Assembly (NCBI GenBank): GCA_964373955.1
Contig: CAYJXA010000002.1
Span: 5,113-69,112 of the forward strand
Source of the DNA: an uncultured Methanosarcinales archaeon
GTDB taxonomy: Archaea > Nanobdellota > Nanobdellia > Woesearchaeales > GW2011-AR9
DNA: 64,000 nucleotides
Reading direction: 5' to 3'
In this document: positions 38,491 to 38,935 of the stretch, in pieces
How the letters are laid out: every line of letters starts with the position of its first letter
Position numbering within the stretch: position 1 is the stretch's first letter
Made by a program: the position numbers and the translations under genes
The notes under the pieces: model-generated
What the model saw: only the letters and a program-made list of their open reading frames with translations
Databases searched by the model: none
What the model was told of the DNA's origin: nothing

Positions 38491-38935
38491 AAAAAATTTG
38501 GGTCGTAACGAAGTGGAACCGTTTAGTATATGTTATGTTTAGTGACAAAGTCATTGATGGTTTTTCTTTAGCACCGCTAAACGAAGACAGCACCGTTAAG
38601 AAGTAGCAGTTCACTTTATCTTCGTTAAAAGCAACTCAAAAATTGGATATAACGGTTGTTATGCGACCCCCACTTTAGCGACCGAAAGTAAATCTCGTCT
38701 TTCGCCGTAAGGCGAAACTATATTGATAATGAGGGAGCGGAGTGGGGGCAAGCACCGCAGTGCGCAGAGTTTTTTATTTGCCGTTGAGCAAAGTAAAAAA
38801 TTTGGGAGAGTAACGCAAGGGCTTTGATGTCCTGAGTAACGCAACCGCATCAACAACCGTTATGCGTAGGGAGGCTTTGATGCCGAGTGGAGTTTTTTAT
38901 TTGCTGGGAATGTAGTTGGCACTGTAGTTTTTTGG
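38491..38935. repeat. island intergenic repeat array C (three tandem degenerate units)
   Basis: The units start at A-run+TTGG (38491, 38638, 38795). Each holds TAACG...GTTATG(C/T) (38532-38537, 38658-38664, 38859-38865). Two end in GAGTTTTTTATTTGC (38767-38782, 38890-38904). AGCGGAGTGGGGG lies at 38736-38748. Confidence 0.75.

Follow-up and report, generated by a model that had tools for sequence, protein, structure and literature searches.

A conserved stem-loop at a gene-cassette end, beside a Xer/dif-type junction, in an archaeal island of defence-like genes

The stretch of DNA analysed here, referred to as the window, comprises 64,000 nt (positions 5,113 to 69,112 of contig CAYJXA010000002.1) and is archaeal in its gene content, with intron-containing tRNA genes, a split transketolase, Lhr and VKOR. 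The G+C content of the 36–42 kb region is 30–34%, compared with ∼41% elsewhere in the window. Five short junction sequences (cores A, B, C, C2 and D) divide the island at 34.5–43.2 kb into four modules that lie head to tail (34518–36178, 36184–38652, 38659–38856 and 38860–43163). Module 2 ends in a conserved non-coding region of ∼190 nt (block 1, 38463–38652, + strand), which takes in the stop codon of the open reading frame (ORF) at 37485–38483 within its first 20 nt and finishes with the left arm of core C. The element under study, 99 nt on the + strand at 38503–38601, is an internal part of block 1, and core C lies 41 nt downstream of it. A first-pass annotation had described it as resembling the attC recombination site of integrons. 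Part of that description stands: a cassette-like gene module does carry the element at its 3′ end, the junctions of the array do carry AAC...GTT recombination boxes, and the inner stem is real. The part that fails is the folded recombination site. The 99 nt are not an integron attC site, nor the recombination site of the junction; they form a conserved stem-loop that closes a gene cassette.

The two-tier palindrome behind the attC reading was transcribed correctly. Its outer pair (TCGTAAC, 38503–38509, and GTTAAGA, 38595–38601) is complementary at 6 of 7 positions and its inner pair (CGTTTAG, 38520–38526, and CTAAACG, 38577–38583) at all seven, with spacers of 10 and 11 nt and a centre of 50 nt. 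A paralogous copy (copy D, 42949–43060, + strand) sits inside the right-end region of module 4, with its arms placed accurately at 42960–42966, 42976–42982, 43030–43036 and 43047–43053; the paralogy itself is borne out by 80% identity between 38491–38546 and 42949–43002 (E = 5e-6). The geometry occurs once in the window (twice when both strands are counted), while block-shuffled windows give a mean of 1.19 counts and reach the observed number in 69 of 200 shuffles. About one such pattern per window is expected by chance, and its presence carries little weight. Folded as single-stranded DNA (ssDNA), the 99 nt yield −7.3 and −6.8 kcal/mol on the two strands (z = +0.07 and +0.15). The z-scores are +0.84 and +0.87 for copy D, and −0.97 and −0.79 for the stem-bounded part of the window copy. 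A stable two-tier hairpin is formed in none of these folds, on either strand of either copy, and the energies of the 99 nt are at the level of shuffled sequence. Single-strand folding, which the annotation had proposed as its own check, thus spoke against it.

A family alignment (A6) of ten copies, two in the window and eight in archaeal metagenome-assembled genome (MAG) or metagenome contigs, was assembled by pattern scans that did not force both arms. The scans turned up copies in three MAG contigs of GTDB, two with the label Methanosarcinales and one with Nanoarchaeota, and in four metagenome contigs, with an extra diverged copy in one of the related contigs (L008). Across the ten copies the outer helix is 63.5% paired, its two middle pairs being unpaired in 7–8 of them; the outer GTT is changed to GTC in three copies (L002, L003 and copy D) and is absent from two, and the supposed R-box pair is therefore not kept. 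The inner helix, extended by 1 nt per arm to 8 bp (38520–38527 with 38576–38583, + strand, from pair counts and RNAalifold), is 90% paired. Six of its pairs are invariant and two show compensatory changes, G-C to A-U in L004 and an eighth pair that may be C-G, U-A, A-U or U-G. A feature absent from the first-pass annotation lies within the loop: a 6-bp mini-hairpin (AGTGAC-AAA-GTCATT, 38541–38555, + strand), with GAA or GTA as the triloop in other copies. It is 98.3% paired, three of its pairs are changed on both sides, and its G·U pair is invariant in all ten copies. The inner helix and mini-hairpin together hold five pairs changed on both sides. The covariation score of the whole three-helix structure, outer helix included, is reached by none of 500 shuffles, and slid controls are 23–37% paired; RNAalifold returns exactly the inner stem and the mini-hairpin, and does not predict the outer helix. 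Compensatory change in the arms of homologues is thus present in the inner tier, where the 8-bp stem covaries, and wanting in the outer tier, which is mostly unpaired. The outer tier, in short, neither folds nor covaries, and neither failing applies to the inner one.

That the palindromes arose by chance in duplicated spacer DNA and have no function is hardly credible in the light of this alignment. The two-tier pattern is indeed expected in shuffles and the full 99 nt do fold at shuffle level, but the ten copies occur in unrelated contexts on at least seven contigs, with invariant blocks and five covarying pairs, and the covariation already contradicts chance. The invariant yet unpaired blocks are AAAAAATTTGGG, AACGNAGTG and GTTATG. 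The first of these (38491–38502, + strand) recurs at 38794–38805 and 42949–42960, and in the loops of junction stem-loops of related contigs; the spacers are of similar length in all ten copies. The element is found at about half of the junctions, being missing at A, B and C2 in the window and at L007a and L008d among the relatives. Phage and plasmid collections gave no match. Three of four pattern scans of viral contigs were empty, and the remaining one, with a 15-base pattern, returned chance matches only, in whose 80 loci the junction model R1 (see below) found no site. One further candidate from the metagenome scan, L005, was set aside on reading as a chance match, in seemingly coding sequence that lacks CCGTTTAG and CTAAACG. 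Near-identical junction repeats are shared by L002 and L003 (MAGs labelled Methanosarcinales) and L001 (a Nanoarchaeota MAG), contigs of 3–5 kb assigned to different phyla, which points to either mis-binning or cross-lineage cassette transfer.

The fold favours one strand, and RNA. Bounded by its 8-bp stem, the element gives z-scores of −2.2 to −4.4 as + strand RNA (window copy −15.8 kcal/mol, z = −2.68), of −0.8 to −2.6 as − strand RNA, and of −0.8 to −1.7 as DNA of either strand; the + strand RNA fold clearly surpasses those of DNA and of the opposite strand. The mini-hairpin is followed, before the 3′ arm, by a tract (38556–38575, + strand, with T5 at 38561–38565) that is T-rich in all copies, with a run of at least T4 in nine of ten and at least T5 in six. 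Because of the + strand RNA bias, the invariant G·U pair, the T-tract and the position just past a stop codon, a role at the level of the transcript is favoured, with modest confidence: the element would serve as a module-end 3′ stem-loop, a terminator-insulator that stops read-through across the junction into the next module. With archaeal oligo-T terminators and mRNA 3′ stem-loops it shares a coding-strand T-rich tract just past the stop codon, a small stable hairpin before that tract, and a fold specific to + strand RNA. Unlike oligo-T terminators, it has a T-tract enclosed by a longer stem, a short T-run in some copies, and no co-oriented gene upstream in three.

A gene for a small non-coding RNA, transcribed from a promoter of its own, would also account for the best fold being that of + strand RNA, and for an orientation that is independent of the neighbouring gene. 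The A/T-rich invariant AAAAAATTT would then be a TATA-like box ∼25 nt upstream of the stem, and its centre does lie ∼26 nt before the first stem base. Such a gene is nevertheless improbable, given that the motif is not a canonical archaeal B recognition element (BRE)/TATA sequence, that it also occurs in the loops of junction stem-loops, where it is merely the 3′ arm of a sub-hairpin, and that the T-tract would end the RNA ahead of the 3′ arm. In Rfam 15 no match overlaps the element even at E ≤ 5, and only the two tRNAs of the window reach the gathering score. Two other candidates were rejected. A small protein starting at the invariant GTTATG would have frames (read by eye) ranging from 11 to ∼59 aa, with L006 open for >100 codons, one copy has ATA for ATG, and the covariation of the hairpin alters amino acids. 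An IS200/IS605-type or TnpB-associated RNA finds no transposase or TnpB domain among the neighbours.

The cores, rather than the element, have the appearance of recombination sites. All five lie on the + strand and consist of two arms of ∼11 bp, ending in ...TAA and starting with TTA..., around a spacer of mostly 5–6 bp. Core A (34502–34528, AGCGGAGTTAA-CGATG-TTAACTTCCCC) forms the left edge of the array, and core B (36168–36194, ATTGCAATTAA-CGATG-TTATATCCTCC, position weight matrix score 27.2) separates modules 1 and 2. Core C (38642–38669, ATTGGATATAA-CGGTTG-TTATGCGACCC) separates modules 2 and 3 and has an 11-6-11 layout; it is likely, judging by its arms, to be a recombination core, a duplex site of the Xer/dif type. 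Core C2 (38846–38870, CGCATCAACAA-CCG-TTATGCGTAGG), between the ORF-less module 3 and module 4, is degenerate and has a 3-nt spacer, and core D (43153–43180, ATTACGCATAA-CTCCCT-ATATCCCAACT) is again 11-6-11. The dif site of Pyrococcus abyssi used experimentally is ATTGGATATAA-TCGGCC-TTATATCTAAA (Cortez et al. 2010, PMC2958812). Its left arm is identical at 11 of 11 positions to that of core C (38642–38652), and its right arm matches 7 of 11 positions of the right arm of core B (36184–36194), which belongs to the same module as the left arm of core C. Allowing at most one mismatch, the P. abyssi arm pattern has five matches in the window, compared with a shuffle mean of 3.03, and the junction copy is the only exact one. 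ATTGTATATAA, at 34465–34475, agrees with the P. abyssi left arm at 10 of 11 positions and lies 27 nt to the left of junction A; it may be a displaced chromosomal half-site. A second dif-like site within the element, on the minus strand at 42980–42999, was considered and dropped, the arms not being inverted repeats of each other.

Core D is probably the resident, xerA-linked dif-like site. A xerA-like tyrosine recombinase gene (43624–44472, + strand) lies 450 nt from it, and in L010 and L011 the equivalent site, with GCATAACTCCCTATA identical at 15 of 15 positions and ∼110 nt of conserved flank, lies upstream of a 79%-identical xerA that forms a pair with lhr. Linked xerA/dif modules have been described in some archaea (review, PMC5357621). 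The cumulative GC skew over the window (1–64000) has its minimum at ∼16 kb and its maximum at ∼48 kb, near xerA and the array, and a terminus reading of this maximum is confounded by the strongly skewed low-GC island.

The modules are discrete units with matched ends. Each module begins with an arm that is inversely complementary to the arm at its end; over seven contigs, 11 of the 13 modules match in this way at 8 or more of 11 positions. The mean match within modules is 7.8/11, compared with 5.6 for arms that share a junction and 5.3 for all pairs, and none of 10,000 permutations reaches the observed mean. The ends of a module are thus halves of one palindromic site, as in modules of the dif type and in integrative mobile elements exploiting Xer (IMEX). 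The homology of module 2 to related contigs starts at 36182 and ends at 38653, the boundary between arm and spacer. Block 1 is 90–93% identical to L006 6–192, L007 9137–9323 and L008 6399–6590, and its homology ends at 38653 in all three; block 2, which makes up the conserved left end of module 2 (36184–36303, + strand), is 91–95% identical to L007 6764–6877 and L008 4305–4401. Module 2 therefore shares both of its ends (left 91–95%, right 91–93%) with one module of L007 and one of L008. The cargo is another matter: tblastx finds nothing in common between module 2 and these two modules, and their Pfam content differs. Breakpoints at the arm/spacer boundary, and the same ends around different cargo, are again the signature of IMEX or dif modules. 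The only homologue of the 332-aa ORF (P0122, 53% identical) is on L015, in another island that lacks these repeats, which means that the element is not tied to this ORF.

Blocks 1 and 2 form a pair of long, imperfect inverted repeats (including 36268–36303 with 38468–38496), and the stem-loop of the element has no counterpart in block 2. Exact inverted repeats also bracket the Fic ORF (14 nt, 34678–34691/35642–35655), module 1 (17 nt, 34610–34626/36102–36118) and the cargo of module 4 (16 nt, 38979–38994/42919–42934); they are module-specific, which suggests nested palindromic ends. Module 3, between junctions C and C2, is ∼200 nt long and ORF-less, with a long hairpin, CCCCCACT...AGTGGGGG, at ∼38668–38750 and the second AAAAAATTTGGG at 38794–38805. 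Small C-G-closed hairpins with GNA triloops (CGAAG, CGTAG, TGCAA) occur throughout the junction repeats of the window and of L001–L008. Hairpins of this type are unusually stable in DNA.

The inverted repeats raise the prospect that the element belongs to a region bound by accessory proteins that regulates XerA recombination at the neighbouring core, comparable to the ∼180-bp accessory sequences of cer/psi and the inverted repeats at Thermococcales dif. Its unpaired blocks are invariant in 10 of 10 copies, it always lies on the same side of the core and in the same orientation, and blocks 1 and 2 flank the cores as long inverted repeats; inverted repeats beside archaeal dif sites have been noted as possible binding sites of partner proteins (Cortez 2010, PMC2958812). 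This role is nonetheless judged quite unlikely. The compensatory changes indicate that pairing within a single strand has been selected, something that a protein site in duplex DNA would not require, the stem-loop part is lacking in block 2, and the element is absent from half of the junctions, including some with intact stem-loop sites.

In the related contigs the junctions have a different form from those of the window. Block 1 leads directly into a stem-loop, the order being ATTGGATATAA, C, ATC, a stem of 11–13 bp with a loop of 38–106 nt, TG, and TTAxxxxxxxx. The 12-bp junction stem is 95.8% paired across ten such hairpin-bearing sites, with eight pairs in which both partners have changed, and TAACA/TGTTA, the base helix, is paired in all of them. 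The site in L007 (9309–9440) folds as ssDNA at −25.4 kcal/mol (z = −4.5). The unpaired bases around the stem number exactly six in all ten sites, as CATC+TG, CGTC+TG, CATT+TG or CA+GATG, and six is the length of the Xer central region. A covariance model built from these sites (R1; base helix TAACA/TGTTA, 2-nt bulge and 12-bp covarying stem) scores the relatives' sites at 66.9–113 bits in the better-scoring orientation, finds three further sites at contig ends, and has no match in 713 kb of unrelated viral contigs. In the window it recognises only true junctions, at 36165–36196 (20.8 bits, E = 0.008) and 38639–38671 (16.8 bits), with the whole stem-loop deleted in both. The window junctions, unlike those of the relatives, have no spacer hairpin, which means that they can work only as duplex sites; L004 and L010 also have stem-loop-less sites. 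The relatives' stem-loops assort independently of both flanking arms. One block 1 precedes three different stem-loops, and none in the window, and near-identical stem-loops are set between different arms in L001 and L008b. Such independent assortment is predicted by neither the integron nor the IMEX model.

Beside these sites the element makes a poor attC. In an attC site the R″/R′ boxes (RYYYAAC/GTTRRRY) are conserved, whereas the element matches at 6 of 7 positions in the window copy and is 63.5% paired there over the ten; the central spacers are ∼5–6 nt in attC and 10 and 11 nt here; and the stable ssDNA hairpin with extrahelical bases on one strand is missing. The pairing L″/L′ boxes do have an equivalent, in the 8-bp stem. 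The best overlap of R1 with the element (38460–38545) scores 10.1 bits at E = 2, and there is no IntI in the window. By these comparisons the claim that 38503–38601 behaves as a folded attC site fails.

The element could still be a diverged or fossil folded recombination site, the 8-bp stem joining a left-arm-like AAAAAATTTGGGTCGTAA|C to a right-arm-like G|TTAAGAAGTAG, with the 3′ ∼55 nt of block 1 (38597–38652) as a tiny ORF-less module. AAAAAATTTGGGTCG(T/G)AAC is similar to the true left-arm context CAAAAATTGGATATAAC, and TTAAGAAGTAG to the right arms TTAAGTTCTCC and TTAAGAGACCC; the stem covaries, and the homology of L007a covers only 38598–38654, which places one breakpoint at the 3′ outer arm. 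This breakpoint is the only one that supports the idea. With GTT altered to GTC or lost in five copies, an outer helix that is often open, ∼21–23 nt unpaired around the stem compared with exactly six in all ten bona fide sites, an R1 score no better than that quoted above and ssDNA folding at z ∼0 to −1, the fossil-site explanation is considered unlikely. From its sequence, then, the element probably functions as a terminator or insulator, or else is such a fossil.

The recombinase encoded next to core D is XerA-like, and not an IntI, in its predicted relationships. It scores 213.8 bits with the NCBIfam model XerA_Arch, slightly below the curated cutoff of 220, and 187.9 bits, in two stretches, with the integron-integrase model TIGR02249, for which the cutoff is 265. 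Among the structures in PDB it matches XerA of P. abyssi and of Thermoplasma acidophilum best, while IntI4 aligns only with residues 17–176, the N-terminal half; its named homologues are from Candidatus Woesearchaeota. The additional domain specific to IntI is lacking in this protein, the window's sole recombinase, and no integron integrase is present in the window; tblastn over the window and the parts of L001–L008 examined turned up no tyrosine recombinase besides it. An intron-containing tRNA gene (43402–43582, + strand, Rfam tRNA 30.6 bits) lies between core D and xerA, its acceptor stem legible in the sequence, and a second is at 47433–47533. ARAGORN found no tRNA in the window, and both genes were recognised with Rfam. 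One of the two has an intron of ∼100 nt, and the other resembles initiator tRNA-Met in starting with AGCGGGG and having a CAT anticodon. The 3′ end of the tRNA-Met gene (tccaccccccgctattctt, 47520–47538) is repeated 70 nt downstream (47590–47608), resembling the att-type trace that a past integration would leave.

The predicted cargo of the low-GC island is defence-like. It includes a SoFic/PDC-S04-like Fic protein (34696–35643), a Type IIG restriction-methyltransferase (39083–42115, 792.8 bits) and a SLATT-like coiled-coil membrane protein (42155–42865). The three ORFs of module 2 (36351–38483) match nothing in PADLOC, NCBIfam or Pfam.

Integron arrays were reported from Archaea in 2022, mostly as clusters of attC sites lacking integron-integrases (CALINs), with six IntIs in 75 genomes (Ghaly et al. 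2022, PMC9668308), and Nanoarchaeota/Woesearchaeales are among the taxa concerned (PMC9668308). The array in the window resembles these in its accessory and defence genes, which share one orientation and are poor in promoters, in its junctions with ...AAC / GTT... boxes, and in that the first bases of a cassette are complementary to a box near its own 3′ end. The relatives' sites add an imperfect hairpin like that of attC, ∼97–161 nt with the arms (74–138 nt if measured from the AAC to the GTT). One arm of this hairpin bears a 2-nt bulge, and the sequence varies while the pairing is kept. The differences are equally clear: there is no IntI and no IntI-specific domain in the recombinase, the window junctions have no hairpin at all and arms that match archaeal dif, the relatives' stem-loops are exchanged independently of both flanks, and the cargo lies between long conserved inverted repeats, blocks 1 and 2.

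To the archaeal XerA/dif system the array is linked by an 11-6-11 architecture, seen in cores C and D, by ATAA/TTAT beside the spacer, and by the xerA-like gene 450 nt from core D; like the dif sites of Thermococcales (PMC2958812), the window cores are flanked by inverted repeats. A chromosomal dif, however, occurs once per chromosome, rather than as five sites in 9 kb with spacers of 3–6 bp, and is not a hybrid of unrelated arms, nor does its spacer hold a 70–140-nt stem-loop as in the relatives. IMEX (CTXphi, TLCphi and the gonococcal genomic island, GGI) and the pdif modules of Acinetobacter are likewise gene modules delimited by dif-like sites. They are integrated one after another at a resident dif or beside it, have no dedicated integrase and exploit the host Xer recombinase. 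CTXphi reportedly uses a folded single strand that mimics dif, and the hairpin-bearing sites of the relatives could, by analogy, fold in a CTXphi-like manner, with an arm duplex, 6 bp and a 2-nt bulge, and a second arm-like duplex. Against this likeness, all described cases of IMEX are bacterial, pdif modules have inversely oriented flanking sites while those of the window all have the same orientation, and the modules described here have conserved inverted-repeat ends of ∼130–190 nt. No archaeal IMEX or dif-module system was found in the literature searched. The array would work like an integron or IMEX array, yet its junction cores are of the Xer/dif type.

Matched ends are predicted by integron and IMEX logic alike. 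Xer is favoured over IntI because IntI is absent, because the window sites can act only as duplexes, and because one arm is identical to an archaeal dif arm. In the proposed mechanism the modules would circularise, each circle carrying one palindromic dif-like site, and XerA would recombine these circles into and out of the resident site, in the manner of integron cassettes or IMEX elements. The defence-gene island may thus be an array of the integron kind whose modules are moved by the recombinase that the cell uses to resolve its chromosome. The best explanation of the locus as a whole, given roughly an even chance of being right, is a Xer/dif-bounded module array in which the element is a module-end 3′ stem-loop or terminator.

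Several observations weigh against this explanation. As to the junctions, the right arm of core C (38659–38669) matches the P. abyssi right arm at only 4 of 11 positions, and the spacer length varies (5, 5, 6, 3 and 6 nt in cores A, B, C, C2 and D). L009 and L013 have no junction site in the DNA examined, so that xerA is not beside such arrays there; in the xerA neighbourhoods of L009, L013 and L014 neither block 1 nor the junction motif was found. As to the element, the oligo-T tract lies inside the stem, and termination there would leave the 3′ arm untranscribed; the run reaches T5 in just six of ten copies; the nearest gene is on the opposite strand in three (copy D, L002 and L007b); only about half of the junctions have the element; and its invariant unpaired blocks point to protein binding rather than RNA structure.

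A wider proposal, put forward tentatively and with less than even confidence, is that archaea of the DPANN type possess an integron-like cassette platform without a dedicated integrase, in which the housekeeping recombinase XerA would capture cassettes with matched dif half-sites, in tandem, at a xerA-linked dif. Two states of the site are envisaged. In one, as in the window, it would be a plain 11-6-11 duplex; in the other, as in the relatives, a covarying stem-loop in the spacer would allow one strand by itself to fold as a substrate resembling that of attC or CTXphi. The flagged stem-loop would then be either a cassette-end insulator or a second, diverged folded site.

Most archaeal integron arrays have no integrase, which raises the question of what moves their cassettes. 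For one lineage, the window and its relatives offer a concrete answer: XerA/dif-like cores, matched half-site ends, and an array beside a dif-like site and xerA. For the 99 nt themselves the lesson is narrower, namely a structured, conserved cassette-end element rather than a recombination site. If a platform without a dedicated integrase is real, at least some archaeal attC clusters without IntI would be XerA-dependent. If XerA is indeed the recombinase, this would be the first archaeal counterpart of the bacterial IMEX and dif-module systems, folded sites of the attC type could be traced in their origin to ordinary dif sites, and it would explain the shuffling of defence genes (Type IIG restriction-modification, Fic and SLATT-like) in small DPANN genomes.

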